Shown: positions 160 through 21,516 of the stretch, piece after piece
Position numbering within the stretch: the stretch's first letter is position 1
Layout of the letters: each line of letters starts with the position of its first letter
NCBI RefSeq assembly: GCF_058153355.1
Contig: NZ_JBLWLY010000002.1
DNA length: 64,000 nucleotides
Strand: one strand, 5' to 3'
Origin: a plasmid
The notes under the pieces: model-generated
What the model was told of the DNA's origin: nothing
Databases searched by the model: none
Seen by the model: only the letters and a program-made list of their open reading frames with translations
Made by a program: the position numbers and the translations under genes

Positions 160-525
160 ATGGCCCGTTCAGCTAAACCACGCAAACGAAAACCTGCACC
201 TCAAAGAAGCAAACTCCTCCGCTATGTCGTGAAACTTCACGAAGATGATTTTTTTGACGAAGAAGAAGCTGAGGTTCTGCGCTTTGATAATTTTGACGAT
301 GCCGTTGAGTGTTGCGCAGACCTGAATATTCCGTTCTTTGTGGATGCCGGAAACAAAAAACTGGTCTTCTGGTTTGTACGTGTTGATGACGAAGGGTATC
401 CGGAAATTGCCCGCTGCACGGAGCGGGAATTTGCGACAATTCCTGCCGGTATCAGCGCCGACGGCATGTATTGCCCTGAATGCGGTACGGTTCACTGGCC
501 GGATGGCGTTATTCCGCCTTTCTGA
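160..525 (+). CDS. hypothetical protein with acidic central region and C-terminal CPECG motif
   Basis: ORF 103..525 in track; internal ATG at 160 lies just after palindrome gacaatatcattgtc; no family recognised. Confidence 0.45.
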   Translation: MARSAKPRKRKPAPQRSKLLRYVVKLHEDDFFDEEEAEVLRFDNFDDAVECCADLNIPFFVDAGNKKLVFWFVRVDDEGYPEIARCTEREFATIPAGISADGMYCPECGTVHWPDGVIPPF

Positions 526-847
526 TGCTTCCCCGTTTTGCCGATATTTTTCAGCAGGGAAACCGATGGCTTAACTGGCTGGAGAAGCAGCCGGTGCAGA
601 TGAGCCGCCTGGAACATTATGCCGGTCAGGATGAAATTGGCCTGCGTTACAACAGCCACCGGACAAAACGAGAAGAAAACCTTGTGATGAGTGGCGACGA
701 GTTTATGGAAAGGTTCTCCTGGCATGTGGCGGATAAGGGGTTCCGGATGGTGATACGGGGTCCTGAGTCCGGTGAAGCGGCGATTACTGGAAGATGTGGT
801 GTACGCCATAACGGAGACAGTGAGAAAAACGGCGAGGCAAATCACAA

Positions 848-1200
848 GGAGAGGGATGTATCAGCAGTGACTGAAGGTTGACCCGCTGAAGTGCGAGCTG
901 TGCGGAGGTCAGATGCGGTTTACGGGGCTGAAGAGGGGTTACCGTCTGGCAGAGCAGGTTATGATGCATGAGCCGCTGGCACGAATACGGTGGTGCGGCT
1001 GAGAGTCGCAGAGGGGAAGTTGCGTCCATGTTGAGGGGAACGGAGCAAAAAACCATCAGAGATACATTGAATCAATCAATGTAAGCAATATTAAGTGTCT
1101 ATACCGATTACTTGATGATCAGGTTGTGTTGAATAAATGCGCATTCTTCGGTGCTTTTTTAATCTTTTGGGGATTTAAATTCCTATCGATGGACATGAAT
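848..1200. repeat. about 350-bp IS-derived segment, second copy at 31512..31860
   Basis: near-identical sequence read at both loci (gagagggatgtatcagcagtgactgaagg...); different flanks at each copy. Confidence 0.7.
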
Positions 1201-1768
1201 GCAGGCTATATAAGAGCAGCGCGCATCCACTTACCCAATGCGGTTGAGAAAATAGCCTTCGATCGCTTTCATGTGGCGAAACAACCGGGTGAGGTGGTGG
1301 ATAAAACCCGCCAGAATGAACATCCGCATCTTCCTGTTGAAAGTCGTCGTCAGGCAAAGGGAACTCGCTTCCTGTGGCAGCACAGCGATAAATGGATGAC
1401 CGAATCCAGGCAGGAAAAGCTGATATGGCTGCGTGCGCAGATGAAGCTGACGAGCCTGTGCTGGGAAAGAACTGGCAAAGGATATCTGGAGCAGACCATG
1501 GAGCGAGGAAAGACGCAACGACTGGCAGAGATGGCTGTCGCTGGCGGCCAACAGTGACGTCCCCATGATGAAGAATGTGGCTAAAACGATAGGGAAAAGG
1601 TTGTACGGTATCCTGAACGCCATGCGCCATGGCGTATCAAACGGAAATGCGGAAGCACTGAACAGCAAGATCAGGCTGCTGAGAATAAAAGCCAAGGGAT
1701 ACCGCAACCGGGAGCGCTTTAAGCTGGGAGTGATGTTCCACTATGGGAAACTGAATATGGCGTTCTAA
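1126..1768 (+). pseudogene. ISL3-family transposase, fragmented by frameshifts
   Basis: ORFs 1126..1557 and 1565..1768 carry ISL3-like motifs (FDRFHV, C-terminal KGYRNRERF) but are split and lack an intact N-terminus. Confidence 0.55.
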
Positions 1769-1861
1769 GCCTTCCCACCATGATCGGGGAAGACCCAGAT
1801 ATGAACAGGCACATTCAGAGTTACTTTAAAGAGCTTACTGAACGTTTGAGGTGTTAGAGCC

Positions 1862-2199
<338 letters not shown>

Positions 2200-2783
2200 A
2201 AACTGGATTGTGGGCCATAAATATTCCCAAAAAATAGCCCGCTCCGTTTATTACCGGAACGGGCGAGAGCATGACATTGTCTGTAATTATAATGAGACTG
2301 CTGATTCTACTTATTTTTAATTTCAAGAAAAGCGTTTTCTACAAGGAATTATGAGATTTAATGTTTTGTTTAGACAATATTATCATTCTGTTCAATAATG
2401 AAAGTCTTCATCAACAACAAGTAAAAACAACGTCCCTCTCATCGAACCGGACTTACAGATTTCCCGCATCCGGCTCTCTTGCAACACATCAGACCTTCAC
2501 GTTCGGGCGGTTATGGGGAAGGTCCAACAAGCTGTATGAGCCCTAACTGTTTGAATACCAGTAGATTACCAGAAACTTCTATCGATTGAAGACATTACCA
2601 ACTAGCGTTACTAAATGTTGACCAAGTTTTGTTCACTTGTCTGGTTTTGATAGTAGCATTCTGCAGAGTATTTTGATATGATAAATATGCATTAACAATG
2701 ATATTATTGTTAATTTCCTAGCATGAAAATTAAAAGATCAACTTTTTATCTCGAATATTTTTTACATTATCAGTTGGTTTCTT

Positions 2784-3500
2784 ATGAATGACAATTCATT
2801 GCTTAGAAATTCTTCATTATTCATCGCCTATATGGGATGTGTAGGGTGGGTCAGTGCTTATTCTTATGGCTGGGGAACCTCTTTTTACTATGGATTTCCA
2901 TGGTGGGTTGTTGGTGCAGGTTTGGATGATGTTGCCAGAAGTTTACTCTATGCTATCATAGTAATGGGTATACTCTTTACCGGTTGGGGGATTGGTATTT
3001 TATTTTTTCTTCTTATAAAGAAAAGAAGTAAAATACAAGACTTGAGTTTTTTTAGACTATTTTTTGCTATTACCCTACTGTTTTTCCCTGTAATATTCGA
3101 ACTTTTAATTCTCAAACAATATTTCATACTTCCATTATCACTTTCATGCATTATTAGTTCATTGGTTATTTCAATAATAATTCGTATATATGGACGGATC
3201 TTTTCTGTATCATGTTTTTCAGATATCCCTTTTGTTAGAGAACACCGCATTAAGTTAATTATGGCTGGTTTTTTGGTTTATTTTTGGCTTTTTTCCTTTC
3301 TTGTTGGCTGGTATAAACCTCAATTAAAAAAAGAATATCAGATGCTTTGTTATAATAATAGTTGGTATTATGTTCTTGCTCGTTATGATTCACGGCTCGT
3401 TTTGTCTAGTTCATTTAAAGATGACAGTAACAGATTCTTAATATTTAATACAGAACAGTCGGGATTTTATGAAATCAATGATGTTTATGTCAGAAAGTAA
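2784..3500 (+). CDS. hypothetical polytopic membrane protein (Trp/Phe-rich hydrophobic segments)
   Basis: 238-aa ORF in a low-GC block; several hydrophobic stretches; no family recognised. Confidence 0.5.
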   Translation: MNDNSLLRNSSLFIAYMGCVGWVSAYSYGWGTSFYYGFPWWVVGAGLDDVARSLLYAIIVMGILFTGWGIGILFFLLIKKRSKIQDLSFFRLFFAITLLFFPVIFELLILKQYFILPLSLSCIISSLVISIIIRIYGRIFSVSCFSDIPFVREHRIKLIMAGFLVYFWLFSFLVGWYKPQLKKEYQMLCYNNSWYYVLARYDSRLVLSSSFKDDSNRFLIFNTEQSGFYEINDVYVRK

Positions 3501-3848
3501 TAATCCTCTCCCACAAAGTGAATTAAATGAATATATAATGCGTTCGAAGTATATGTATTGAGCTGTCATACTGAGAAACAAACCTTAGGGCAGCACAATT
3601 AAAGCCAGAAACAACTATGCAAGAAATTCACCGTCATACTGATGCTGCATCGTGGTGACACTGTCTGTCACTTTCATGTTGACTGAACAACTCTGCTGCG
3701 AAGAAGGTGTACCGCCGGCGGGATTTGATTGTCCGGCGTCTAGCTTTCACTTCCCTGATGGAACTGAAAGTTGTTATGACCGGTCAGCTTGCCCTGTCCG
3801 CAGGACATGAGGTGCTGTGACGGACAGCACCAGTAACGGAAAGTGACA

Positions 3849-4259
3849 ATGAAAATGAATACTGCGCTGATAGTTGCACTAATGTGTATGTGGTATGCGG
3901 TACCCGCTGCTGCAAAAGAGACTTTACTGGCTATGCCACGTAATTCAACAGAACATTGCTATGCGGAGATTAATGTGCACGGACCATATGGGGTGTATTT
4001 CCGAGTGGTCCCGCATACCCCCGGGGGAAAGAGCTGGGTCGAATGTAACAGTGACTACTATTACTCTGATAAACCACCGGGAGTACAGATACTCGGAACC
4101 CGTGCAGGGTGTCGGGTATACGGAATCTGCGGGACCACCTCGACACTGCATGTGGCTGGAAGAGGGGTTGTGTGTATTAAAAATATATGCAGTCCACGTG
4201 GGATGATAATTCACAGGATACGGAAACGTCCTGTAGTGGCTGTAAGCGATGAGATGTGA
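3849..4259 (+). CDS. secreted cysteine-rich protein of unknown function
   Basis: ORF 3843..4259; ATG at 3849; N-terminal signal-peptide-like segment ending AAAKE; six Cys in the predicted mature part. Confidence 0.5.
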   Translation: MKMNTALIVALMCMWYAVPAAAKETLLAMPRNSTEHCYAEINVHGPYGVYFRVVPHTPGGKSWVECNSDYYYSDKPPGVQILGTRAGCRVYGICGTTSTLHVAGRGVVCIKNICSPRGMIIHRIRKRPVVAVSDEM

Positions 4260-4312
4260 TCTTACCCAGCAATAGTGGACACGCGGCTAAGTGAGTAAAC
4301 TCTCAGTCAGAG

Positions 4313-4475
4313 GTGACTCACATGACAAAAACAGTATCAACCAGCAAAAAAACACGTAAACAGCATTCGCCTGAATTTCGCAGTGAAGCCCTGAAGCTTG
4401 CTGAACGCATCGGTGTTGCTGCCGCAGCCCGTGAACTCAGCCTGTATGAATCTCAGCTCTATGCGTGGCGCAGCA
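4313..4475 (+). pseudogene. IS3-family orfA 5' fragment, truncated by IS66 end
   Basis: N-terminus MTKTVSTSKKTRKQHSPEFRSEALKLAERIGV is IS3 OrfA-like; reading frame runs into the IS66 terminal repeat starting at 4476. Confidence 0.6.
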
Positions 4476-4686
4476 GTAAGCGGCTCGCCAGAACCGTATT
4501 GATATTTACTGAGAGCTCAGATCAACTTTCCAGGGCAACAGATCGCGTACCCGGTTTGCCGGCCAGTCCTGGATATGTTCAATGACGTAACGCAGCCACT
4601 TTTCTGGCTCCACATTGTTCAGACGGCATGTGCCGATCAGCGAGTACAACACCGCAGCATGTTCACCACCGCTGTCAGAACCCGCG

Positions 4687-6511
4687 AGTCGAGTCAGCCG
4701 GAGAGAATTTCACTCCCCGGCTGCTCACGGAACCGTACGTGACACTCTCGCGTCATACGGCTCTTGATCACTCATTTGATGCACGTAGTAAATACCAGTG
4801 AACAAATAGCTTCGGATACTCCTTCCTTACCAGCGTCAGCTTTCGCTGAGCCTTCCGGTTCGAAAGTCTGTATTTAGACTGCATCCACTTGAGCAGACGT
4901 GACTGCATTGCACTCCACAGTCGATAGTTGAAATTTCTGGACCAGAACTTTCCGTAGTACTCGATCCAGCCTCTCACTATCGCATTGTAGCGCCTCGCAA
5001 AATCCAGCAAACTCTCAGCTGTTGAGCGATGTATACGCCACTTCTTGATTGTTTCTGTTATTTTGCGCATTGCTGCATTTGACGCACCCGGCATGCATTT
5101 TCGGTACAGTTCGCCTTTGAAATTCTTCAGCGTACGCACTTTGAAGTCATATCCGAGAAAGGTGAAACTCGTTGCGACGTTTCTCCTTTTAAACGTGTCA
5201 ATGTAGGCGATATTCGTTTTCCCTGCATTCAGGACCAGCCCGACTTCCGAGAAGCGCTCCGATAACCTGTTCTTCAGCCTTGTTGCATCACTCATTCGTG
5301 AACAATGTACTACAATATCGTCAGCGTACCTCTCAAACGGTACCCCCCGATATTCTCTTTCCATCCACAAATCAAATGCATAGTGAAGGAACAAGTTAGC
5401 AAGTAGTGGACTAATGACCCCGCCCTGCGGAGTGCCTCGTGTTCGGGTTATTAATTCTCCATTTTCACAACTCTGCATTGGCGCTTCCATCCAGCGTCGA
5501 CAGTACAGGATGACCCATTTAGGCATCCCGTGGTGTTCCAGAGCTTTGAGCACCAGATCATGTCTCACATGGTCGAAAAACGCACTGATGTCCACTTCCA
5601 GTATCCAGCTATAACGCCAGCACCGGATGGCACATTGTTTCAGAGCGTCATGAGCTGATTTGCCTGGTCGGTAACCATATGAATCAGCATGGAAAATCGG
5701 GTCAAGCTTTTCTTCCATGAAAAGTTTTATCGCTCCCTGAGCAATTCGATCGGATACTGTTGGGATCCCCAGAATGCGTTCCTTGCCATTCGACTTCGGG
5801 ATCCGTTTTTCCAGCACTGGTGGCGGAAACCATGTTCCCGAACATAGCCGGTTCCAGATCTTGTATAGATTGCCATCACGTTGCTGGTCGAACATTTTCA
5901 AAGTCTGCCCGTCGCATCCGGGGGCTCCCTTGTTGCGACGCACATCCAGATATGATGCCCAGACCAGTGCTTTTGGTATTTCAAATGATTTTCGTTGCAT
6001 CAGTTACGTCATCCCCTTTTGGGTTGTGTCTTCTGCAATGAATGTGATCCCCATCCCTTCGCTCCAGACCCATTACAGATCTTTCATCACTACTACGAAT
6101 GGGTCCGCCCCTGTTTCCCGATACGTGCCGGAAACAGGTTCTCACGTTCCCTGAGATGGTCTGGCCCGGGATCCTGCTGCCTTCACACCGGATGCCGCGC
6201 AGTCAGTAAGCAGGTGTCTTCTGCGCTTATCAGGGGACGGCTGTACGGCCCCATTTTGACATCATCTAAGATTTCGATGCTTCATCGGACAGTTTACTTT
6301 CGTTCAGCTTCCCGAACCCCACGTGACAGTAGATCTCTGCCTTTTCCCGAGTCGCTCACCACCTCATTCCTTAGAATGAAGCAGCACCGGGTCGTTTGGT
6401 CAGTGCTCCTGTAAACCCTGACCGGAGGGCCCACCTCCACCCACCTCAGAGCATGGATAACTTATGCTGCAATTTTCACATTGTTGCCATAAGTACTCCT
6501 TCGTGACACAC
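4687..6511 (-). mobile_element. bacterial group II intron, copy 1
   Basis: 5' GTGTG and 3' ...AC termini; domain V-like hairpin gagccgtatgacgcg...cacgtacggttc after the IEP; interrupts tnpC between codons for GRKNWL and FAGSDSG. Confidence 0.8.
4768..6000 (-). CDS. group II intron-encoded reverse transcriptase/maturase (no endonuclease domain)
   Basis: 410 aa with RT motifs including YADD (RYADDIVV) and a maturase-like C-terminus. Confidence 0.85.
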   Translation of the reverse strand: MQRKSFEIPKALVWASYLDVRRNKGAPGCDGQTLKMFDQQRDGNLYKIWNRLCSGTWFPPPVLEKRIPKSNGKERILGIPTVSDRIAQGAIKLFMEEKLDPIFHADSYGYRPGKSAHDALKQCAIRCWRYSWILEVDISAFFDHVRHDLVLKALEHHGMPKWVILYCRRWMEAPMQSCENGELITRTRGTPQGGVISPLLANLFLHYAFDLWMEREYRGVPFERYADDIVVHCSRMSDATRLKNRLSERFSEVGLVLNAGKTNIAYIDTFKRRNVATSFTFLGYDFKVRTLKNFKGELYRKCMPGASNAAMRKITETIKKWRIHRSTAESLLDFARRYNAIVRGWIEYYGKFWSRNFNYRLWSAMQSRLLKWMQSKYRLSNRKAQRKLTLVRKEYPKLFVHWYLLRASNE

Positions 6512-7943
6512 AGAGCCAGTTTTTCCGGCCTACGGCCACTCCCCGTAAGGCGTTCTCTGCGATGTTGTTGTCGATTTCCACCCAGCCATTACTGCAGTAC
6601 ACGTTCAGTGCATCCCACTGTTTCAGCAGGTATGCGAACGCTTTTGCCGTGTCCGAGTGACGCGACAGTGTTTTCATCTGTTGCTGTATCCAGTCATACA
6701 GTGACTGCATCAGTGGCGCGGCTCTGGCTTTTCTTGCCGCCAGACGCTGTTCTGCTGAACAGCCCCGGACCTCTGCCTCGATGGCATACAGTTCACCGAT
6801 ACGCTGCAGGGCTTCCGTGGTGATGTCGGTGGGCACTCTTGCATGCACATCGTGGATTTTTCTCCGGGCATGAGCCATACATGCGGCTTCCGTTATTCTG
6901 CCGGATTCGTACAACGCCCGGTAACCACCGTAAGCATCGGCCTGAAGCACTCCGCTGTAACCGGCCAGATGATTCTGTGGATGGATACCTTTCCGGTCCG
7001 GGCTGTACGCGAACCAGACCGCCGGAGGCATTTCCGAACCGGCATTCCTGTCATCCCGGACATACGTCCAGATATATCCTGTTTTCGCCTTCTTCCTGCT
7101 CGGTGCCAGCACTTTTACTGGTGTGTCATCAGTGTGAACCTTGCGGGTGTTCATCACATAACGGTACAGGGCATCATTCAGCGGAGTCATTAACTGGCAG
7201 CACGCGTCAACCCAGTTGGAGAGTAACGTACGGCTCAGTTCGACCCCCTGACGGGCAAAGATTTCACTCTGACGATACAGTGGCAGGTGTTCGCAGTATT
7301 TTCCCGTTAACACGCGGGCAAGTAACCCCGGGCCCGCGATACCACGCTCTATCGGACGGGACGGTGCCGGAGCTTCAACGATGCAGTCACATTTTGTACA
7401 GGCTTTTTTTACCCGTTCTGTGCGGATCACTTTCAGAGCGCTGCTCACCAGTTCCAGTTGTTCTGCGCTGACTTCCCCCAGATAATCCAGCTCACCGCCA
7501 CACTCCGGGCAACAGCTTTCTTCTGGCTCCAGGCGATTTATTTCGCGGGGCAGATGCTCCGGTAACGGGCGACGATGACGAGACTGTCGTAACTGGCGGG
7601 GAACCCGGAACTCCACCTTGCAGGAGTTTGCACTGACAGTTGTCTGAGTAGATAGAGACGGAGTAAGAGCCGCCACCGGTTCTTTCTGCTCATCCGGCGT
7701 TATCTCCACAGGTAATAATTCAACGCCAGCGTCAGAAGGGGTTGTTACCGGAAGACGCCGTGATATACGCCCTTCGTTTTGCCAGAGTCTGAGCCATTTG
7801 AAAATAACATTATCATTAACGCCATTTTCTCGTGCAATCTGGGCCACACAAGCTCCGGGTTGTGATGCCAGTTCAACCATACGAAGTTTGAATTCATTCG
7901 AATGCTTTTTACGAGGTTCTTTTCGCCAGTCCTGTAATTCCAT
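6512..7943 (-). pseudogene. IS66 orfA-tnpC in-frame fusion, interrupted at 3' end by the intron
   Basis: N-terminus matches orfA of copy at 25452, then jumps at [19 protein letters not shown] into the middle of tnpC; tnpB absent; downstream tnpC exon at 4506..4686. Confidence 0.7.
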
Positions 7944-7993
7944 ACTCAGGTGTCCGTCTGTGTCAGATGGGCGTCTAAGTTACCAATTCTTGT

Positions 7994-8311
7994 CTAATGG
8001 CTACATACGGCAGTTGGTTTACGCTTACCAACTACACCTTTCAGTTCGGTAAAATCCGACAGGCCCCGCAGACCGGGCTGATGCCGCTGGCGGAACATGA
8101 CCTCCTGCTCTGCACCATACTGTAGCTTCCATTCGCGAACCCGCCGTTGCATTGTTCTTCGAAGGCTGTTGGGGTACTGACCGGGATATTTATCCTGTAG
8201 CATCTCCAGCAGAGTTGTTGGTGTTAGAGCAGGCCTCTCTTTCAACAGAGGAACAAGCATGCTGTCCCACACAGCTTCAGTAATAATGCCGGTATCAGTT
8301 TTTATCATCAC
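7994..8311 (-). pseudogene. short fragment, possibly from an IS transposase
   Basis: 105-aa ORF ending at the IS66 terminus; assignment is a guess from its position among IS elements. Confidence 0.3.
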
Positions 8312-8701
8312 TCTGTTTGCTGTTTAACCAGACTGGTGTGATTACTGATGCAGTGAAGACCTTCCCGCATCCTGACTCACACAGCGATCGACCCTTTGTG
8401 TCCTGCCCTGGACCTGTCGGTTGCCGGAAGCGCCTTCATGCGAGGTGTCTCCTCACCGATGCGCGTGACTCAAGAAGGGCCTGACGGCTTGTCTCGTTAC
8501 TGTCCTGTCCGGGTTATCTGTCTGGAGATTCAACTCTGTTTCCTCACAGGAGAATGAGATGAACGCATCCCCCAACATTAAATCCGGAGCACAGTGATGA
8601 ATAAAGGGGGAAATCAGAGAGGTGTGGAGCCTCGCAGATTTCCGGCATCATTGTGCCCAATACGGGATGCATAAAGCTCCCTCAGACTGGAGACTCCACA
8701 A

Positions 8702-9721
8702 ATGAAATATACACCGGTTGGCGTTGATATCGCAAAACATCTGATTCAGGTTCACTTCATTGATGAGAACACAGGTGAAGTGGTGGATAAGCAACTTCGC
8801 GGCAGAGATTTTCTTGAATATTTCAGCAACCGGGAACCCTGCCTGATTGGTATGGAGGCCTGTGGAGGCTCTCAGCACTGGGCACGGGAGCTGACAAAGC
8901 TGGGGCATAAAGTCCGCTTGTTACAGGCCCGCTTCGTTAAGGCATTCGTCATGGGAAACAAGAACGACGTGATGGATGCCCGGGCTATCTGGATGGCGGT
9001 TCAGCAGCCCGGTAAAGAAATTGCCGTCAAAACAGAAGAACAGCAGTCGGTACTGGTTCTGCATCGTACCCGCATGCAACTGGTGAAGTTCCGGACCGCA
9101 CAAATTAACGCCCTACACGGGACGTTACTGGAGTTTGGTGAAACCATCCACAAAGGTCGGGCAGCGATGGAGCGGGAGTTCCCAGAAGCACTGGAACGAA
9201 TGAAAGAGAGACTGCCACCGTATCTCATCACGGTACTGGAAAACCAGTATAAGCGGTTGAATGAGCTGGACTCCCTGATAGAAGACATCGAAAAACAGCT
9301 TGCCAGCGTGGCGAAACAGAATGAGACCTGTAAGCGGTTGCTGGATATTTCTGGCGTTGGGCCACTTATTGCGACGGCAGCGGTGGCCACCATGGGGGAA
9401 GCATCAGCGTTTAAATCAGGGCGAGAGTTCGCGGCTTATGTTGGTCTGGTGCCCAAACAGACTGGCTCAGGAGGGAAAATCCGCCTGCTGGGGATAAGCA
9501 AACGTGGTGATACATATCTGCGAACCCTGTTTATTCATGGCGCAAGGGCGGCAGCATTACTGACCAAAGAACCTGGTCCGTGGATAACCGAACTGAAAAA
9601 ACGTCGTCCAGCCAGTGTGGCTATCGTCGCCATGGCAAACAAGCTGGCACGAACAGTATGGGCGATAGCTGCCCATGACCGTAAGTATGACAGGAACCAT
9701 GTCAGTATCAGACCATATTAA
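8702..9721 (+). CDS. IS110-family transposase
   Basis: 339 aa with N-terminal GVDIAKH and typical IS110 C-terminal region (VAMANKLARTVWAI). Confidence 0.8.
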   Translation: MKYTPVGVDIAKHLIQVHFIDENTGEVVDKQLRGRDFLEYFSNREPCLIGMEACGGSQHWARELTKLGHKVRLLQARFVKAFVMGNKNDVMDARAIWMAVQQPGKEIAVKTEEQQSVLVLHRTRMQLVKFRTAQINALHGTLLEFGETIHKGRAAMEREFPEALERMKERLPPYLITVLENQYKRLNELDSLIEDIEKQLASVAKQNETCKRLLDISGVGPLIATAAVATMGEASAFKSGREFAAYVGLVPKQTGSGGKIRLLGISKRGDTYLRTLFIHGARAAALLTKEPGPWITELKKRRPASVAIVAMANKLARTVWAIAAHDRKYDRNHVSIRPY

Positions 9722-9936
9722 TCGCTGATACCGATAAACAATGAACTCTTAACAAAAGGGTGAATGCTGAAAGGTTGCTCTGGCGGCCCGAGTGATGACA
9801 ACGACAGGTAAGACCGTGACCTGATAAACCTGAATAACAGCCGGGATATAAAGTCCGTAAGGAGAATAAGGCTCAGGTCAGCGAATCTCATAGTGGCCCG
9901 CAGCCCTGGCTGCAATAAGGCCGGAGTTACCGGCAG

Positions 9937-10434
9937 ATGCTGGCATGGATGACTTCGTTTGGGGCATTAAAGCGAATTGGTGTTGAGTGTACAGGCACCT
10001 ATGGATCAGGTCTGCTTCGCTATTTACAGAATGCCGGGTTAGAAGTTCTTGAGGTGACTGCGCCAGATCGGATGGAGCGACGCAAACGGGGTAAAAGTGA
10101 CACGATTGATGCTGAATGTGCCGCTCACGCCGCATTCTCCGGAATAAGAACCGTCACACCCAAAACGCGCAATGGCATGATTGAGTCTCTGCGAGTATTA
10201 AAAACTTGCCGAAAAACAGCAATATACCGCAATGTTACCAACGTTTATCGTATTTCATTAAAGTCCCTTGCCCGACGCTATCTCGAGTTACATGACGAAA
10301 TCGCTGATTTGGATGTCATGATTGCGGCAATTGTCGATGAGCTGGCGCCTGAACTGATTAAACGTAATGCTATTGGATACGAAAGCGCTTCGCAGTTGCT
10401 GATTTCTCAAGTCGCTGATTTCAAAAAACTGTAG
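9937..10434 (+). pseudogene. IS110/IS1111-family transposase N-terminal fragment
   Basis: 165 aa with IS110-like N-terminal motifs (ECTGTYGSGL, KSDTIDAECAAHA); no C-terminal half. Confidence 0.55.
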
Positions 10435-10478
10435 TATCCTCTGCGAAACGATCCCTGTTTGAGTATTGAGGAGGCGGG

Positions 10479-10739
10479 ATGTCGCAGATCGAAAATGCAG
10501 TAACTTCCTCACCGAAACGCATTTACAGAAAAGGTAATCCGTTAACCGGAGCCGAGAAACAACGCATATCTGTTTCCCGGAAAAAGGGGACACATAAAGC
10601 GATTAATGTTTTCATCCAGAGTGAACTCAAAGATGATTTGACACAGCTTTGTAAAGATTCGGGCTTAACTCAAAAAGAAATGATAGAGCACTGGATTTTG
10701 AAAGAAAAAGCTGCGGTGGATGATGCGAATAGAAGGTAA
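10479..10739 (+). CDS. repA2: RepA2/CopB replication copy-number repressor
   Basis: 86 aa starting MSQIENAVTSS, same length and N-terminus as IncFII CopB. Confidence 0.8.
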   Translation: MSQIENAVTSSPKRIYRKGNPLTGAEKQRISVSRKKGTHKAINVFIQSELKDDLTQLCKDSGLTQKEMIEHWILKEKAAVDDANRR

Positions 10740-10863
10740 CTAAGTTACTTTCTTGAACATTTGAATCGCGGATGCTAGATTACTGATCGTTTAAGGAATT
10801 TTGTGGCTGGCCACGCCGTAAGGTGGCAGGGAACTGGTTCTGATGTGGATTTACAGGAGCCAG

Positions 10864-10954
10864 AAAAGCAAAAACCCCGATAATCTTCTTTAACTTTGGC
10901 GAGTGAGAAAGATTACCGGGGCCATCTAAAAACCGTATAGCCAACAATCAAGCT
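10864..10954 (-). ncRNA. copA: CopA-like antisense RNA (approximate bounds)
   Basis: position between repA2 and tap; minus-strand hairpin ccccggtaatc...gattatcgggg followed by a T-run at the 3' end. Confidence 0.45.
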
Positions 10955-10973
10955 ATGCGGGGAGTATAGTTAT

Positions 10974-11048
10974 ATGCCCGGAAAAGTTCAAGACTTCTTT
11001 CTGTGCTCACTCCTTCTGCGCATTGTAAGTGCAGGATGGTGTGACTAA
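10974..11048 (+). CDS. tap: Tap/RepA6 leader peptide
   Basis: 24-aa [27 protein letters not shown]; stop overlaps the GTG start of repA1. Confidence 0.75.
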
Positions 11049-11898
11049 TCTTCAACAAACTTATTACCGCCAGGTAAAGAACCCGAATCCGGTGTTCACA
11101 CCCCGTGAAGGTGCCCGGACGCTTCCGTTCTGCGGGAAACTGATGGAAAAGGCGGTGGGCTTCACCTCCCGTTTTGATTTCGCCATTCATGTGGCACATG
11201 CCCGTTCGCTTGGTCTGCGTCGGCGCATGCCACCGGTACTACGTCGCCGGGCCATTGATGCGCTGCTGCAGGGGCTGTGTTTCCACTATGACCCGCTGGC
11301 CAACCGCGTTCAGTGCTCCATCACCACGCTGGCCATTGAGTGCGGACTGGCGACGGAGTCTGATGCCGGAGTACTCTCCATCACCCGAGCCACCCGTGCC
11401 CTGACCTCCCTGGCTGAGCTGGGGCTGATTACCTACCAGACGGAATATGACCCGCTTATCGGGTGCTACATTCCGACCGATATCACGTTCACACCAGCAC
11501 TGTTTGCCGCTCTCGATGTGTCTGAGGTGGCGGTGGCTTCCGCACGCCGCAGTCGTGTGGAATGGGAAAACAGACAGCGCAAGAAGCAGGGACTGGATAC
11601 CCTGGGTATGGATGAACTGATGGCGAAAGCCTGGCGTTTTGTGCGTGAGCGTTTCCGCAGTTACCAGACAGAGCTTAAGTCCCGTGGAATGAAGCGTGCC
11701 CGTGCGCGTCGTGATGCGGACAGGCAGCGTCAGGATATTGTCACCCTGGTGAAACGGCAACTGACGCGTGAAATCTCGGAAGGGCGCTTCACTGCCAGTC
11801 GTGAGGTGGTAAAACGTGAAGTGGAGCGTCGTGTGAAGGAGCGCATGATTCTGTCACGTAACCGTAATTACAGCCGGCTGGCCACAGCCTCCCCCTGA
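11041..11898 (+). CDS. repA1: RepA1 replication initiator (RepFIIA)
   Basis: 285 codons from GTG at 11041; [19 protein letters not shown] and later sequence match IncFII RepA1. Confidence 0.9.
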
Positions 11899-12200
11899 AA
11901 GTGACCTTCTCTGAATAATCCGGCCCGCGCCGGAGGCATCCGCGCGCCTGAAGCCCGTCAGTACACAAAAAAGCAGCACCACATACAAAAAACAACCTCA
12001 CCATCCACCTTCCGGTGCATCCGGTTTCCCCTGTTTTTGATACAAAACACGTCTCACAGACGGGCAATTTTGCTTATCCACATTAAACTGCAAGGGACTT
12101 CCCCATAAGGTTACAACCGTTCATGTCATAAAGCGCCAGCCGCCAGCCTTACAGGGTGCAATGTATCTTTTAAACACCTGTTTATATCTCCTTTAAACTA
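11899..12200. other. oriR vegetative origin region (approximate)
   Basis: directly downstream of repA1; DnaA-box ttatccaca at 12074..12082. Confidence 0.5.
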
Positions 12201-12872
12201 CGTAATTACATTCATTTAAAAAGAAAGCCTATTCACTGCCTGTCCTGTGGACAGACAGATATGCACCTCCCACCGCAAGCGGCGGGCCCCGACCGAAGCC
12301 ATCTTAGTTACAACACTCAAACACAACCACCAGAAAAACCCAAGTCCAGCGCAGAACTGAAACCACAAAGCCCCTCCCTCATAACTGAAAAGCGCCGCCG
12401 CCCCGGCCCAAAGGGCCGGAACAGAGTCGCTTTTAATTATGAATGTTGTAACTAAGCATCATCATCGCTGTCAGTCTTCTGGCTGAAAGTCCTCAGTACA
12501 CGCTCGTAAGCGGCCCTCACGGCCCGCTAACGCGGAGATACGCCCCGACTTCGGGTAAACCCTCGTCGGGACCACTCCGACCGCGCACAGAAGCTCTCTC
12601 ATGGCTGAAAGCGGGTATGGTCTAGCAGGGCTGGGGATGGGTAAGGTGAAATCTATCAATCCGTACCGGCTTACGCCGGGCTTCGGCGGTTTTACTCCTG
12701 TGCCATATGCAACAACGGAGTGCCGCCTTCCATGCCGCTAACGCGGCATCAAAAAATCCCTCTTCTCCAGTGCCCCCCTCCGAACTCAGAGTGTATTTTC
12801 ATTTATTGATGAAATTTACTGTTTGCGCAATTTTCCTGTTTTAGTGTATTTTGTCATTCTGGAGGCTATAAT

Positions 12873-13184
12873 ATGTTTAATGTGATTACTCACCCGGCCG
12901 CACTGGATGAACTTCTGGAATTACCAGACAATCTGCGTGGTCGTATGACCAGACTGATTGAACGGCTGGAACAGGAAGGTAACAAAATGAAAATGCCTCA
13001 CAGCCGTGTAATTGGCGGAGGGCTTTTTGAACTGAGAGTCGGGGATAAAAATATCGCAAGGACACTGTACGCTTATGCAACGGGTAACGAAATCTATCTG
13101 CTGCATGCATTTGTGAAAAAAACGCAAAAGACACCAACGAAAGCTATTGAAATTGCCAGGATGCGTCTGAAGGAGATGAACTGA
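12873..13184 (+). CDS. RelE/ParE-superfamily toxin, HigB-like
   Basis: 103 aa; toxin-first order with overlapping downstream HTH antitoxin. Confidence 0.65.
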   Translation: MFNVITHPAALDELLELPDNLRGRMTRLIERLEQEGNKMKMPHSRVIGGGLFELRVGDKNIARTLYAYATGNEIYLLHAFVKKTQKTPTKAIEIARMRLKEMN

Positions 13185-13471
13185 TGAAAGTAAAAGGTGT
13201 TCCATTCAGCCAGGTAAAGCAAAAACTACTCAGTACTCCAGAAGCTGTCAAAGGGTATGAGGATGCTGACAAAGAACTGGAGATGGTGGAAATGTTATAC
13301 GAAATGAGAGAAAAAGCGGGATTAACAAAGTCAGCACTGGCCGAACGAATGGGGTTACGCCCGTCAGCCATCAGTCGCCTGGAAAGTAACCCTTTAGGGG
13401 CCAGCATGAAAACTTTGACAAAATATGCTCATGCCTGTGGCGCAACCATCGATATTCACGCTGTCTATTGA
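13184..13471 (+). CDS. HTH (XRE-type) antitoxin, HigA-like
   Basis: 95 aa with helix-turn-helix segment LTKSALAERMGLRPSAISRLE; start overlaps toxin stop. Confidence 0.65.
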   Translation: MKVKGVPFSQVKQKLLSTPEAVKGYEDADKELEMVEMLYEMREKAGLTKSALAERMGLRPSAISRLESNPLGASMKTLTKYAHACGATIDIHAVY

Positions 13472-13756
13472 GGGGGCCGCTTGGAATTCGGAAAATAAAC
13501 CACGTTAAGACTATTTTTTAGACAAATGACTTTCAGGAATCGCCAAGATGGCGGGATAACAGCGGTTTTGGTGTCCGAAATCGTACAATTCTGTACATCC
13601 ACGAAAGGGAATGTACGGAAGTAAGCCAGACGGTTATCGGACGGTAAGAACATTTCGTACAGCCTTTACGTTCAGTGAGTTAGCTGGCCTGGACGTAACC
13701 ACTCGTTAACTCAATTCTCTTAGCGTGGGAAAATTTCCGAATTCCAAGCGGACCCC
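13472..13756. mobile_element. Tn3-derived inverted-repeat miniature element
   Basis: 38-bp terminal IRs gggggccgcttggaattcggaaaataaaccacgttaag (13472..13509) and its near-complement (13719..13756), matching the Tn3-family IR pattern; no transposase inside. Confidence 0.7.
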
Positions 13757-13801
13757 TTTATCCTTGCCCCGCTGAATGAGGAAACGCTGTTCCGGGGGAT
13801 T

Positions 13802-14029
13802 ATGCTGAACGTCTTCCGTTCACGGTACTGCTGGACGATGTGGCTGGGTGCGCTGATAACGTCGTTGTTGTTCGTCGCCGCGCACAGCCAGTATCAGAAC
13901 CTGCTGACCCTGGCAGAACTGTTCCTGGTGGGGGTGATTACATCAGCGGCCAGGATCAGAAGTGGTGGCCTGCTGCTGCCGGTATTGCTGCATATGGAAG
14001 CAACCGCGCTGGGTTTACTGTTTGGTTGA
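13802..14029 (+). pseudogene. CPBP/Abi-family intramembrane protease C-terminal fragment
   Basis: 75-aa ORF; family call from memory of the CPBP C-terminal region; a second copy of the same fragment is at 17049..17196. Confidence 0.4.
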
Positions 14030-14121: not shown

Positions 14122-14379
14122 ATGCATACCACCCGACTGAAGAAGGTTGGCGGCTCAGTTATGCTGACCGTCCCACCGGCACTGCTGAACGCGCTGTCTC
14201 TGGGTACAGATAATGAAGTTGGCATGGTCATTGATAATGGCCGGCTGATTGTTGAGCCGCACAGACGCCAGCAATATTCACTGGCTGAGCTACTGGCACA
14301 GTGTGATCCGAATGCTGAAATATCAGCTGAAGAACGAGAATGGCTGGATGCACCGGCGACTGGTCAGGAGGAAATCTGA
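14122..14379 (+). CDS. pemI: PemI antitoxin, copy 1
   Basis: 85 aa MHTTRLKKVGGSVMLTVPPALL..., PemI/MazE-like. Confidence 0.85.
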   Translation: MHTTRLKKVGGSVMLTVPPALLNALSLGTDNEVGMVIDNGRLIVEPHRRQQYSLAELLAQCDPNAEISAEEREWLDAPATGQEEI

Positions 14380-14380
14380 C

Positions 14381-14713
14381 GTGGAAAGAGGGGAAATCTG
14401 GCTTGTCTCGCTTGATCCTACCGCAGGTCATGAGCAGCAGGGAACGCGGCCGGTGCTGATTGTCACACCGGCGGCCTTTAATCGCGTGACCCGTCTGCCT
14501 GTTGTTGTGCCCGTAACCAGCGGAGGCAATTTTGCCCGCACTGCCGGCTTTGCGGTGTCGTTGGATGGTGTTGGCATACGTACCACAGGTGTTGTGCGTT
14601 GCGATCAACCCCGGACAATTGATATGAAAGCCCGGGGCGGAAAACGACTCGAACGGGTTCCGGAGGCTATCATGAACGAAGTTCTGGGCCGCCTGTCCAC
14701 TATTCTGACTTGA
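14381..14713 (+). CDS. pemK: PemK toxin, copy 1 (GTG start)
   Basis: ERGEIWLVSLDPTAGHEQQGTRPVLIV..., PemK/MazF family; ORF 14249..14713 in track. Confidence 0.85.
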   Translation: MERGEIWLVSLDPTAGHEQQGTRPVLIVTPAAFNRVTRLPVVVPVTSGGNFARTAGFAVSLDGVGIRTTGVVRCDQPRTIDMKARGGKRLERVPEAIMNEVLGRLSTILT

Positions 14714-14978: not shown

Positions 14979-16948
<1,970 letters not shown>

Positions 16949-17048
16949 GTTGATGTCCTTTCTGGTGTGGGAACCTTAAGGAAACAACATGTTGGGTGGA
17001 GCGGACAATCCAAATGGCGAATTACCGTCTTATATCACTGGCGCTGAC

Positions 17049-17196
17049 ACACAGCCAGTATCAGAACCTGCTGACACTGGCAGAACTGTTCCTGGTGGGG
17101 GTGATTACATCAGCGGCCAGGATCAGAAGTGGTGGCCTGCTGCTGCCGGTATTGCTGCATATGGAAGCAACCACGCTGGGTTTACTGTTTGGTTGA
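17049..17196 (+). pseudogene. CPBP-family protease C-terminal fragment, copy 2, cut by IS21 end
   Basis: same sequence as 13877..14029 beginning exactly at the IS21 terminus. Confidence 0.4.
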
Positions 17197-17288
17197 AAGT
17201 TATATTTTTATTAAACATTGAGCGTTAAAGCCTGGTGTGTTTTTTTAGTGGATGTTATATTTAAATATAACTTTTATGGAGGTGAAGA

Positions 17289-17546
17289 ATGCATACCACC
17301 CGACTGAAGAAGGTTGGTGGCTCTGTTATGCTGACCGTCCCACCGGCACTGCTGAATGCGCTGTCTCTGGGTACAGATAATGAAGTTGGCATAGTCATTG
17401 ATAATGGCCGGCTGATTGTTGAGCCGCACAGACGCCCGCAATATTCACTGGCTGAGCTACTGGCACAGTGTGATCCGAATGCTGAAATATCAGCTAAAGA
17501 ACGAGAATGGCTGGATGCACCGGCGACTGGTCAGGAGGAAATCTGA
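17289..17546 (+). CDS. pemI: PemI antitoxin, copy 2
   Basis: 85 aa; three substitutions relative to copy 1. Confidence 0.85.
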   Translation: MHTTRLKKVGGSVMLTVPPALLNALSLGTDNEVGIVIDNGRLIVEPHRRPQYSLAELLAQCDPNAEISAKEREWLDAPATGQEEI

Positions 17547-17547
17547 C

Positions 17548-17880
17548 ATGGAAAGAGGGGAAATCTGGCTTGTCTCGCTTGATCCTACCGCAGGTCATGA
17601 GCAGCAGGGAACGCGGCCGGTGCTGATTGTCACACCGGCGGCCTTTAATCGCGTGACCCGCCTGCCTGTTGTTGTGCCCGTAACCAGCGGAGGCAATTTT
17701 GCCCGCACTGCCGGCTTTGCGGTGTCGTTGGATGGTGTTGGCATACGTACCACAGGTGTTGTGCGTTGCGATCAACCCCGGACAATTGATATGAAAGCCC
17801 GGGGCGGAAAACGACTCGAACGGGTTCCAGAGACTATCATGAACGAAGTTCTTGGCCGTCTGTCCACTATTCTAACTTGA
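17548..17880 (+). CDS. pemK: PemK toxin, copy 2 (ATG start)
   Basis: MERGEIWLVSLDPTAG...; ORF 17416..17880 in track. Confidence 0.85.
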   Translation: MERGEIWLVSLDPTAGHEQQGTRPVLIVTPAAFNRVTRLPVVVPVTSGGNFARTAGFAVSLDGVGIRTTGVVRCDQPRTIDMKARGGKRLERVPETIMNEVLGRLSTILT

Positions 17881-18184
17881 ACATGGGGTTTGAGGGACAA
17901 CCGGACGAAAACGTTCGATTTAGGGCACTAAAACCGCTGCTGTTCCCTCATTCAGTGACTGCCCCAGGTTTTTTTCATGCTCTCCAAGATAGGTGTTTCT
18001 GGGCTCTGTTTGGGAAACGTAATCCTATCACACATTTACACCACTGAATTAGATTTCGATTGTGGAGTAATATCTTTAGTAAATAAATTTAGTCTTTCTT
18101 TTTCAGTTGAGAAAATATATCTCTTGGCTTGGGTTGCATTTTTCTTACTAATTAAGTCTGATATATGTTGTGGAGTATTTATTG

Positions 18185-18541
18185 TCAATTACCAAGTGGG
18201 TAGTATTTATGTGTGAAATAGTTATTTCTTGAAGCATTTTTATGACATAAAACTCCTTTAATATACTCTTTCCTTTTATAAAAAAGATGCATTCCGACTA
18301 CAAAACTTGGATATAAATCCTCTAGTGTCTTAAAAAGATCCTCAATGAAGTTGTTTTTACTATCATCAATATAAATAGTGTGCCTGTACATTTGGCCACA
18401 AATTTTTGTGGCATTAAGAGGAACAATTCTTTCTTTTATTTGCTTCTTGCTAGCGTCTATTTTAACAAAACCATAAACTGTATCTTTCCCGACATGTGGA
18501 TCTTTAGATGTTATTTTAAACTGTCTGATATAGTCAACCAA
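18185..18541 (-). CDS. hypothetical protein in AT-rich segment
   Basis: 118-aa ORF with ordinary composition; no family recognised. Confidence 0.35.
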   Translation of the reverse strand: MVDYIRQFKITSKDPHVGKDTVYGFVKIDASKKQIKERIVPLNATKICGQMYRHTIYIDDSKNNFIEDLFKTLEDLYPSFVVGMHLFYKRKEYIKGVLCHKNASRNNYFTHKYYPLGN

Positions 18542-18924
18542 CAGACGTATCGTGTACTAATCATATGGGGGGGCTGTTGGTTGTTTTCCTGCTTCGACAT
18601 AACAAATCTTTCTGGTTCATGTGGTTAAATAACTGTTCATCATACGCCGGAGGAGACTTAACAAAAAATTCCCCTATGTTGCCTCGTGACAGGACGTAGC
18701 TACCAGTGAATGCTGCGCATGGCGGTTTTGGTGTCCGATATCGTACAAAACTTACCCGTCAGCCTATTCATGTATTGCGCCTGTGGCACACACGAGAAAA
18801 CAGGTAGATTGTGTGTGGAGGAAACATGATTCCTTTCGTGTTATACCGCATGTTTTTTCTACTAACATTTTTTATGATAATCTGAATATTCGTAAAAATC
18901 CGATTTTTTAGTATGTATAAAAGA

Positions 18925-18962
18925 AGAGCAGGTAATTGACTGAACCTGCTCTTTTTTATTAT
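18925..18962. terminator. hairpin terminator downstream of parR
   Basis: gagcaggtaattgactgaacctgctc stem with T/A runs on both sides. Confidence 0.5.
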
Positions 18963-19318
18963 TTTTTTAACATAGAAAGATTGCGTCTGGTTTGTTCTTC
19001 GAAATCATCTTTTGAAGTGATGCTCTCTGATTTGTTTTCTGAAGATGCCGCTATGATGTTTTTTAACACACTTATATCAATTGATGTAGATGTGTATCCT
19101 GTTGTTTGCTCTATAAGTTTCACCAGATTTTCTGCAGTGATTTTCTCACTGAAAAAACCACTGATTAGCGTTAACAGTCGGGGGTCAACAGAATAAAGAG
19201 CTGCTCCGCAAATAAGAGATTGTCTGTAGAAGTCTCCCCGCATTTGTATCGGGAGAGAGTCTATTGTTTGTTGTGTCAGGTTATCCTGCGGATAAAGTGT
19301 CGGGTGCAGGTATGCCAC
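18959..19318 (-). CDS. parR: ParR/StbB-like partition adaptor
   Basis: 119 aa immediately downstream of the parM-like gene; ParR-like size and position. Confidence 0.6.
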   Translation of the reverse strand: MAYLHPTLYPQDNLTQQTIDSLPIQMRGDFYRQSLICGAALYSVDPRLLTLISGFFSEKITAENLVKLIEQTTGYTSTSIDISVLKNIIAASSENKSESITSKDDFEEQTRRNLSMLKK

Positions 19319-19349
19319 AACTTTCTTTTTTTCGGATCACTGCTTTCCA

Positions 19350-20238
19350 TTACGCATGCACCATTGCTTTCACCAATGCAAACTGAGGTTCATCCACCTT
19401 GTTCACTTTCAGATTCGGGAAATATTGCTTTATGTGAGGGTAAATAAGCTCGGCTCCCCCGCCTGTGAGGTAGATTCGGTTCATTCCTGAGAATGTTGAA
19501 ATTTCCTGCCTGATGCTTTCTGCCAGAGATTTCACCTCACTGTCTATTACATGAGTAATATTTTTTATTTCAGCCACATCATTTATTAATGTCTGGAGAT
19601 ATTCATTATCATGCCTGTTTTTTATTAACTCATCAGCAATAAAATAATTGCAGGGTGTGGAGGCTTTTGTTAGTGCATTCATGACGGTATGAGTTATGCG
19701 GGATGTCCCGATTTCTGAATTGCCACGGATTTCAGAAATGCCTTCAAATGCACCGAGAATTAAACCACAATCCAGAGTGGTTCCTCCAAGATCGATAATC
19801 AGGCTGCGTTCAAGTTTGTTTACTTTATCTTTTTTTAGTGATTCAAATGCAGCCGGCAAAGATTCAGGCATTACATTAACTTTTTTAATTTTAAATGTTT
19901 CCCCTTTATTCAGAGATATCTCACGGAGAACATTTGCCTTTTTTCTTTCTATTCTTTCTTCATTTGGTTGATTGTCATTATCAAAGAATTCGGTTACAGG
20001 TAATGTTACTGTCAGTTCTACATCCTGTGGCTGAAGGCCGGATGTCAGCAGTGCTGCCCAAATCATAGGTGTATTTTTTTCCATCCACGACGTAATTGTA
20101 AACTTTGCCGGCATTAAACAGTCCCGGGTTCCAGCCTTCTTTAAAGCTGTTTCCTGACAGACTGGTTCTTACCTCGCCATCTTCAAGCCAGGCCAGTTTT
20201 ACGTTAGTTGAACCATCATCGCATGATACTTTTAGCAT
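19350..20238 (-). pseudogene. parM: ParM/StbA actin-like partition ATPase, frameshifted
   Basis: N-terminal part (ORF 19981..20283, CDDGSTNVKLAW) and C-terminal part (ORF 19350..20114, IIDLGGTTLD) are in different frames. Confidence 0.7.
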
Positions 20239-20284
20239 TCTTTTTGCCTCGTTTTGAGTTTGTGTTTGTCTCAAATTGAGCATC

Positions 20285-20400
20285 CTTTATGTCGATGCAT
20301 CTTTTTGAGTTTTTGTTATTTCTTATTGTGACTCAATTTGAGTTCTTGTTGGTTTCTCATTTTGCGTCACAAACTGAGACGGAAACTACTTAACCAGGCC
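20285..20400. promoter_or_regulatory. parC: parC-like centromere/promoter repeats (approximate)
   Basis: repeated ttgag/tcaa motifs directly upstream of parM. Confidence 0.4.
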
Positions 20401-20589
20401 GTGCCGGCACGTTAACCGGGCTGCATCCGATGCAAGTGTGTCGCTGTCGCCGGCCTCCTCACCCGGTCACGTTTCGTCGTTCCTCCTCCACGCGCTGCGG
20501 CTTCGGGGCCGCACCTGCATTCGTATGCGGTCGCCCGGTTACAGGTGCGGCACGGCCTGATGGAGGCCGCATGTGAGAGGAGAATTCCC

Positions 20590-21516
20590 ATGCCAAACTG
20601 GTGCTCGAATCGTATGTATTTTTCTGGTGAACCAGCACAGATTGCTGCGATTAAACGACTGGCCAGCGGTGCAGTCACACCGCTTTATCGCCGCGCCACA
20701 AATGAAGGTATTCAGCTGTTTCTGGCCGGAAGTGCCGGACTTCTGCAGACCACTGAAGATGTGCAGTTTGAACCGTGCCCCGGACTGACGGCTGCCGGAC
20801 GTGGTGTTGTATCGCCGGAGAATATCGCGTTCACCCGCTGGCTGACACACCTGCAGAACGGTGTGCTACTGGATGAACAAAACTGCCTGATGCTGCATGA
20901 ACTCTGGCTGCAGAGTGGTACTGGCCAGCGTCGCTGGGAAGGATTACCGGATGAGGTCAGGGAAACCATCACCGTGCATTTCACCGCCAAAAGAGGTGAC
21001 TGGTGTGGCTTCTGGAGTAACGAGGATGTATCGGTGTGGTGGAACCGTCTGTGTGACAATGTACTGCCGGAAAAAAACATGCCGTTTGACCTGTTGACGG
21101 TTCTGCCCACCCGCCTGGATGTTGAAGTGAATGGCTTTAACGGTGGTGTTCTGAACGGTGTTCCTTCTGCGTATCACTGGTATACGGAACAGTATGGCGT
21201 GAAGTGGCCTGTGGGGTATGAGGTGAATATCAGCCGTCAGGGAGAAAACTTCATTCAGGTGGATTTCGACACGCCGTGGTGTCAGCCGGAAAGCAACGTT
21301 GTTGCAGAATTAAGCCGCCGTTTCGGCTGCACGCTGGAGCACTGGTACGCCGAACAGGGCTGCAATTTCTGTGGCTGGCAGCGATATGAGCGTGGAGAGC
21401 TTGTTGATGTGCTGTGGGGGGAACTGGAATGGTCTTCCCCGACAGATGATGATGAGCTGCCGGAAGTCACCGCGCCGGAGTGGATAGTCGACAAGGTGGC
21501 GCATTACGGGGGATGA
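20590..21516 (+). CDS. hypothetical protein, likely conserved plasmid backbone gene
   Basis: ORF 20545..21516; probable start MPNWCSNRMYF at 20590; family not identified. Confidence 0.55.
   Translation: MPNWCSNRMYFSGEPAQIAAIKRLASGAVTPLYRRATNEGIQLFLAGSAGLLQTTEDVQFEPCPGLTAAGRGVVSPENIAFTRWLTHLQNGVLLDEQNCLMLHELWLQSGTGQRRWEGLPDEVRETITVHFTAKRGDWCGFWSNEDVSVWWNRLCDNVLPEKNMPFDLLTVLPTRLDVEVNGFNGGVLNGVPSAYHWYTEQYGVKWPVGYEVNISRQGENFIQVDFDTPWCQPESNVVAELSRRFGCTLEHWYAEQGCNFCGWQRYERGELVDVLWGELEWSSPTDDDELPEVTAPEWIVDKVAHYGG

Follow-up and report, generated by a model that had tools for sequence, protein, structure and literature searches.

The AT-rich segment at 17988-18825 of the analysed plasmid DNA (a stretch of 64,000 nucleotides, here called the window) appears from its sequence, with a probability of about 85%, to be what is left, without function, of an AT-rich gene that was acquired horizontally and encoded a 369-aa protein of the DUF4238 family. 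The 118-aa open reading frame located there was described in the initial annotation as the one plausible ORF of the segment; the open frame is real, yet it is not a free-standing gene and corresponds to an internal fragment of the DUF4238 gene. The segment is a case of ordinary gene decay on a mosaic plasmid; the gene family has already been annotated and the kind of event is known. The gain is that an unknown ORF can be labelled correctly, as a pseudogene, and that annotation is spared a spurious hypothetical protein of 118 aa.

Composition and open reading frames

The sharp drop in composition that had been reported for this segment was borne out (28–30% GC against 52–57% in the flanks). In 300-bp windows, the GC fraction of 0.52–0.57 over the IS21-like element and pemIK falls to 0.28–0.30 at 18050-18500, returns in part, to 0.43, at 18500-18800 and is low again through parR and parM. 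Considered block by block, the two remnants of the DUF4238 gene have 28.5% and 30.1% GC, and the intact gene in a relative from Escherichia marmotae (L001) has 29.5%. The flanking genes are those named earlier, with PemK at 17548-17877 (its first copy at 14381-14710) and ParR at 18962-19333. The 118-aa ORF is also present; it starts with TTG and occupies 18185..18541 of the minus strand. The longest stop-free run comprises 123 codons, and composition-preserving shuffles give 76 ± 17 codons and reach 123 in 37 of 2000 cases; thus, the length of the ORF by itself is modestly unusual.

The statement that the ORF belongs to no recognisable family turned out to be wrong. Comparison by BLASTP with the intact, annotated DUF4238 protein showed identity at 114 of 117 positions to residues 22–138, with true homology starting from Y24. 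Even the 118-aa fragment has a match to the Pfam DUF4238 model (PF14022), although it stays below the gathering threshold of 27 bits (12.8 bits, E 0.081), which the intact ancestor in L001 passes with 35.1 bits. Homologues, whose lack had been considered in the initial annotation, are plentiful, yet they point to a pseudogene and not to a gene.

Intact locus in related plasmids

The segment with its borders (17850-18960, 1,111 bases) was compared by megablast with PLSDB and with all complete RefSeq E. coli genomes. The whole query is covered in 18 PLSDB and 8 RefSeq E. coli records (the sets overlap), and the hosts of the intact locus are E. coli, E. albertii and E. marmotae. In every full-cover record the alignment breaks into four pieces, the 1,111 query bases being distributed across about 2,213 bases of the record, and the matched region carries the annotation “DUF4238 domain-containing protein”. 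The loci chosen for comparison come from E. marmotae (L001), E. coli C5 plasmid A (L002) and ETEC B7A pB7A_77 (L003). They share the gene order repA, CPBP protease gene, pemI, pemK, 369-aa DUF4238 gene (minus strand) and a small ORF; parR and parM come next in L001 and L003, and L002 diverges before parR. Aligned to L001, window positions 17180-18186 correspond to 1831-2836, 18188-18533 to 3382-3727, 18529-18825 to 3844-4140, and the sequence from 18826 onward to that from 4581 onward. The retained blocks are collinear with the intact loci at 97–99% identity and are separated by three clean gaps. The closest relative is L002, with 99.1–99.4% identity to the window.

On the left, the segment is bordered by the second copy of pemK (17548..17880, plus strand), which is intact, encodes 110 aa, matches Pfam PemK_toxin with 102.6 bits and is 99% identical to PemK of L001. 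A solitary 38-bp sequence resembling a Tn3-family terminal inverted repeat (17885..17922, plus strand), with GGGG at its outer end, starts 4 bp past the pemK stop. It is followed by a spacer (17923..18035), in which homology with most F plasmids stops near 17987, and then by the 3′ end of the DUF4238 gene. The C-terminal remnant of this gene (18036..18186, minus strand) holds codons 321–369 and the stop, out of frame with the 118-aa ORF; a 50-aa ORF with a TTG start at 18036..18188 is identical to residues 320–369 of the L002 protein at 49 of 50 positions (BLASTP). At junction J1 (18187..18188), 544 bp are missing (L002 2839-3382). The central remnant (18188..18533, minus strand), with codons 24–138, forms the body of the 118-aa ORF; its 346 bp are 99.4% identical to L002 3383-3728, and the two nucleotide changes relative to L002 within the ORF are both non-synonymous (K71M, P136L). 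Junction J2 (18533..18534) lacks 120 bp (L002 3729-3848). Of the former intergenic region upstream of the gene, 292 bp are left (18534..18825; 45.9% GC), 97.3–97.6% identical to L001 3844-4140 and L002 3845-4139, and no gene, promoter or RNA family was detected in them. At junction J3 (18825..18826), 440 bp are missing (L001 4141-4580; L002 4140-4579). The 3′ flank of parR (18826..18958) contains a hairpin (18920-18933 / 18944-18957; inverted repeat I3, 93% complementary) followed by a T-run, which together form a probable terminator between convergent units. The right border is parR itself (18959..19333, minus strand), of the ParR/StbB type (Pfam Plasmid_stab_B, 90.4 bits) and frameshifted.

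The deletions removed more than half of the gene. Codons 139–320 are gone at J1 and the frame is shifted. Codons 1–22 and part of codon 23 are gone at J2, including the ATG, the ribosome-binding region and a QHYLP motif. Also lost with J2 are all of the −10 and part of the −35 hexamer of the best promoter-like site on the minus strand, seen in L001 as TTGATA-17-AATAAT (10/12, at 3851-3823). What is left comprises 164 of 369 codons, in two frames, with 56% of codons lost. A neighbour disappeared at J3, namely a 90-aa plus-strand ORF preceded by a GGAGG Shine–Dalgarno sequence, which adjoins parR in several plasmid lineages, including plasmids with other cargo. In L001 this ORF occupies 4230-4502 with a strong ribosome-binding site, and the PGAP annotation has only a partial pseudogene there, named “hypothetical protein”. 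No Pfam family matches the ORF significantly; it may be a genuine small gene belonging to the parMR neighbourhood. No microhomology, which would be a sign of replication slippage, was found at J1, J2 or J3.

The sequence comparison shows the following course of events. On an IncFII-type plasmid, the gene was once located, with leftward transcription, in a variable cargo slot that has the pemIK addiction module on one side and the parMR partition operon on the other. With J2 it lost the −10 box of its promoter, its ribosome-binding site, the ATG, the first 22 codons and part of codon 23; J1 took codons 139–320 and shifted the frame, and J3 the neighbouring 90-aa ORF. The 118-aa ORF is codons 24–138, read from a fortuitous TTG made at junction J2. 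The loss of this cargo gene fits the general decay of an IS-rich, pINV-like plasmid, on which the adjacent partition genes parR and parM, and the DNA upstream of parM, are broken too.

Deletion cluster and plasmid background

The damage continues beyond the right border. Compared to L001, parR has a 4-bp deletion at ~19321 with a frameshift after about codon 10, and parM has a 71-bp deletion at ~20046, which leaves ORFs of 100 and 254 aa (19981..20283 and 19350..20114). Two further losses, of 2 bp at ~20244 and of 62 bp at ~20344, lie upstream of parM in what is presumed to be the parC region. Among the matching plasmid records, 84 of which are from Shigella, the 12 top-ranked ones were checked one by one; none of these 12 carries the parM/parC lesions, and each aligns in three pieces. 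A second ParMR system was not found within the window. Altogether, seven deletions (544, 120, 440, 4, 71, 2 and 62 bp) fall in about 2.2 kb of AT-rich DNA (18186-20344). By contrast, pemIK shows no sizeable insertion or deletion, and for an 11.4-kb fimbrial block elsewhere in the window the alignment with relatives is unbroken. The cluster could stem from relaxed selection, from a deletion hotspot in AT-rich DNA, from a single complex repair event or from an artefact.

The last of these deserves separate consideration. If the gaps came from assembling AT-rich DNA, the real plasmid would carry an intact DUF4238 gene, orf90 and parMR. Clean losses of 62–544 bp are atypical of assembler or base-calling error, and the retained blocks carry substitutions of their own, 1–3% from the nearest relatives, as expected in a real diverged lineage. 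The configuration is indeed unique among all collections searched (the 28-mers spanning J1 and J3 are absent from 100,044 species-representative genomes), microhomology is lacking at all of J1–J3, and all seven gaps fall within 2.2 kb of low-GC DNA, against gap-free alignment elsewhere in the window; pseudogenes are, however, common in such a plasmid background. We consider an assembly or sequence artefact improbable.

Through the clustered deletions the lineage has lost the ParMR genes, the region upstream of parM and the cargo gene, which fits the reductive evolution of pINV-type plasmids. The window represents an IS-dense IncFII backbone, with RepA at 11029-11898, IS66, IS110 and IS21 elements and a group II intron, whose reverse transcriptase lies at 4768-6000. 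Parts of it (1-14000 and 30000-54000) are 98–99% identical to large plasmids of the virulence type from Shigella sonnei, S. boydii and EIEC. The pINV-like plasmid background of Shigella and EIEC is known for the accumulation of pseudogenes. A K88(F4)-like fimbrial operon block is present at ~31.5-43 kb. For each window segment queried, coverage by any single PLSDB record stayed below 80%; thus, the exact mosaic is absent from PLSDB.

It is also worth mentioning that pemIK occurs twice, at 14122-14710 and 17289-17877, each time preceded by the same C-terminal fragment of a CPBP protease gene (Pfam scores of PemI and PemK are 31 and 103 bits). The copies flank an IS21-like element (istB 14979..15779, istA 15776..16948) and are non-identical, with 97.6% and 98.1% DNA identity to L001 and with pemK starting with GTG in copy 1 and ATG in copy 2. 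Copy 1 breaks off just inside the Tn3-type repeat, in its first bases, where it abuts the end of the IS21-like element. The arrangement resembles a scar left by a cointegrate or by recombination more than it does a recent duplication.

Tn3-type repeat and the variable slot downstream of pemIK

The partial Tn3-type repeat that had been placed near 18722 is unsupported. When four Tn3-family terminal repeats were aligned to 17100-19000, the alignments there stayed at shuffle level; the only resemblance is one of ~9 nt (ACGGGTAAG, minus strand), with no GGGG end and a chance-level score. The initial annotation, which suggested a remnant of acquired cargo, was right in substance, the segment being a deletion-riddled cargo gene of 29.5% GC in a variable slot, and wrong as to the position of the repeat. 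The three marks of a Tn3-family terminal repeat, a length of about 38 bp, a GGGG outer end and likeness to a documented repeat, were found together at 17885-17922 and not near 18722. This sequence is of the Tn6454 type, which is close to Tn1000/gamma-delta. Of the 33 window positions 17885-17917, 28 agree with the Tn6454 repeat GGGGTTTGAGGGCCAATGGAACGAAAACGTACG as given in PMC8560879. The repeat at 17885-17922 is the sole such match in the 64-kb window, none was obtained in 100 shuffles, and its alignment score, 23, exceeds the highest value among shuffles (18).

The same repeat is present in L001, L002 and two further F-plasmid loci (L011 and L012), all with different cargo. Together with ~65 bp beyond it, downstream of pemK, it is kept across thousands of F plasmids (window 17885-17987; L011/L012 2536-2640), and about 2,700 plasmid records match only query positions 1–138, that is, window 17850-17987. 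Since it is common to ~2,700 F-plasmid records with other cargo, the repeat predates the DUF4238 cargo; it is a backbone fossil and not a boundary specific to that cargo. This weighs against the proposal that the segment is what remains of a Tn3-family transposon that brought the cargo, with the repeat marking one end. The sequence at 17885-17922 is a good repeat, and its orientation would suit the proposal, with the outer GGGG towards pemK and the interior running rightwards into the AT-rich segment; however, no inverted partner was found in the 64-kb window or between the gene and parR in L001, there is no transposase or resolvase remnant, and the repeat once proposed near 18722 is at chance level. 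Delivery by such a transposon seems quite improbable and, if true, would concern only how the gene arrived and not the identity of the segment as a DUF4238 gene remnant.

A separate observation concerns L001, in which the region of the CPBP protease gene is interrupted by a 209-bp miniature element (1622-1830). The element is bounded by two 38-bp inverted repeats that are Tn3-family-like and agree with each other at 29 of 38 positions; it is absent from the window. No 5-bp target duplication was found at this element (CCAGA vs GTTTA) and, for that reason, it gives no direct evidence of transposition; its site is probably rearranged.

The interval that follows the repeat has different contents in other plasmids. 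It holds a gene for a DUF262-domain protein in L011, a frameshifted CopG gene in L012, and CopG with RelE/ParE in a further locus (L004); homology with RelE/ParE-bearing plasmids resumes at ~18760. The intact DUF4238 gene has 29.5% GC vs about 55% for the backbone and is acquired cargo in this variable slot. The interval downstream of pemIK on F plasmids may, more generally, be an exchangeable slot for cargo such as DUF4238, DUF262 and CopG/RelE, some of which looks defence-like.

Coding state of the remnant

The central fragment most likely does nothing; the 118-aa ORF is predicted to be neither transcribed from a promoter of its own nor translated. In the promoter scan nothing was found upstream of 18541, the position to which the initial annotation had directed attention, and the whole segment has fewer consensus matches than its shuffles. 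The 20 nt before the TTG (ttagtacacgatacgtctgt) contain no AGGAG-like Shine–Dalgarno motif, and the TTG itself with the next two codons is former upstream DNA fused across J2. A search with Rfam on 17000-21000 at E ≤ 1 gave no RNA family, and there is no second copy of DUF4238 in the window.

The conservation of the family points in the same direction. An alignment of 18 full-length homologue clusters (38–97% identity, 357–390 aa) has 54 invariant columns, most of which fall in the deleted parts, Q17-H18-Y19-L20-P21 in J2 and E155-P309 in J1. Of the N-terminal motif (Q-H-Y-L-P ... Y-x-R-x-F, profile positions 1–20), only Y24-I-R-Q-F survives in the window. A collection of about 15 billion proteins does not contain the exact truncated product, whichever of its two possible starts is taken; in the same collection, 89 members (E. 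coli, E. albertii and Salmonella Heidelberg) make up the cluster of the intact protein. That the ORF is a functional truncated protein (for example, an N-terminal sub-domain of DUF4238 retained as a regulator, a decoy or a dominant-negative anti-defence factor) translated from the TTG at 18541 is extremely improbable, as its 118 open codons in DNA of 30% GC, a length rarely matched by shuffles, were inherited from the parent reading frame, and the confident strand-plus-long-helix unit that the structure model shows at residues 40–126 has to be set against a start codon made by the junction and lacking promoter-like and Shine–Dalgarno sequences, the loss of the invariant QHYLP motif, a product found nowhere else and two substitutions vs L002 that both change the amino acid.

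DUF4238 family and the probable role of the ancestor

Scans with NCBIfam, PHROGs and PADLOC gave nothing informative, and Pfam DUF4238 alone was of use. PADLOC found no match for the intact ancestor or the fragment; the positive control, the tested protein of E. coli TA007, scores 718 bits on the PADLOC model DUF4238-Pers. The direct Pfam match of the intact ancestor covers mainly the N-terminal 76 profile positions, and the remnant in the window is without a full-length PF14022 domain (profile 1–281). A subfamily profile was run in a full HMMER scan of 1.84 billion representative proteins (E ≤ 1e-3), by which only 24 clusters were found; the subfamily is thus rare. Its distant members P0024, P0034 and P0039 match the full Pfam profile (1–280), which ties the plasmid subfamily to the canonical DUF4238 family. 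In two proteins, P0027 (3048 aa) and P0037 (739 aa), subfamily profile positions ~153–296 are matched in 8 and 11 repeated stretches, respectively, which suggests that large proteins otherwise unrelated to the family can contain this part of the profile as a tandemly repeated module.

Intact homologues are found as single genes in mobile-element or defence hotspots. A homologue with 62% identity (P0005, locus L009) lies in a P2-like prophage, adjoining a reverse transcriptase and an SMC-like ATPase, another with 43% identity (P0016, locus L007) in an integrase/MobA island, adjoining an Eco57I-type methyltransferase, and the F-plasmid slot is a further setting of this kind. The sole significant viral structural neighbour detected with Foldseek is a protein of Stenotrophomonas phage Smp131 with function unassigned; Smp131 is a P2-like phage.

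A DUF4238 protein was shown to act as a single-gene anti-phage system with strong resistance to T7 (Rousset et al., 2022; PMC9122126). The tested gene, on plasmid pFR101, was cloned from the P2-prophage hotspot of E. coli TA007 (PMC9122126), and later surveys count DUF4238 among defence systems. The sequence of the tested protein was taken from the supplement of PMC9122126, and in a profile comparison with the subfamily, 68 N-terminal columns align (E 0.013). Given the family membership, one T7-blocking member and homologues in a P2-like prophage and an integrative island, the intact ancestor was probably a single-gene anti-phage defence determinant; we infer this role by analogy, since the kinship of the subfamily to the tested protein is real but remote.

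A more far-reaching reading would be that the intact ancestor belongs to a rare, divergent DUF4238 subfamily with anti-phage function that is missed by defence models and resides on IncF plasmids in an undescribed defence-cargo slot downstream of pemIK (with the fossil Tn3-type repeat), and that the window documents its loss together with parMR through deletions that are unusually clustered, free of microhomology and restricted to AT-rich DNA. Taken as a whole, this reading is doubtful. If it were true, it would concern the relatives, and the remnant in the window would still be inert.

Comparison with known systems

Among Tn3-family ends, the repeat next to pemK is similar to those of the Tn6454 type in its GGGG outer end and ACGAAAACGT core. 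Unlike Tn3-family ends, the window copy stands alone, with neither a partner nor a transposase, and belongs to the F-plasmid backbone.

The nearest known counterparts of the gene are the plasmid-borne IncF DUF4238 proteins WP_040100279.1 (E. coli C5 plasmid A), WP_001297754.1 (ETEC B7A pB7A_77) and WP_181479313.1 (E. marmotae pRHBSTW-00605_2). The window has the same locus, pemI-pemK, repeat, gene, [orf90] and parR-parM. In contrast to the intact IncF genes, it is without codons 1–23 and 139–320, promoter, ribosome-binding site and orf90, and the remainder is in two frames. On this comparison of sequences, the window copy is to be read as a pseudogene of the IncF plasmid DUF4238 gene.

As regards the DUF4238 system of Rousset et al. 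(2022), the intact ancestor belongs to the same Pfam family, shares the motif region H-[YF]-L-x(3)-Y-[LI]-[RK]-x-F and is likewise a single gene on a mobile element. However, the two are very distant, the plasmid subfamily is rare and about 60 aa longer, and the copy in the window is broken.
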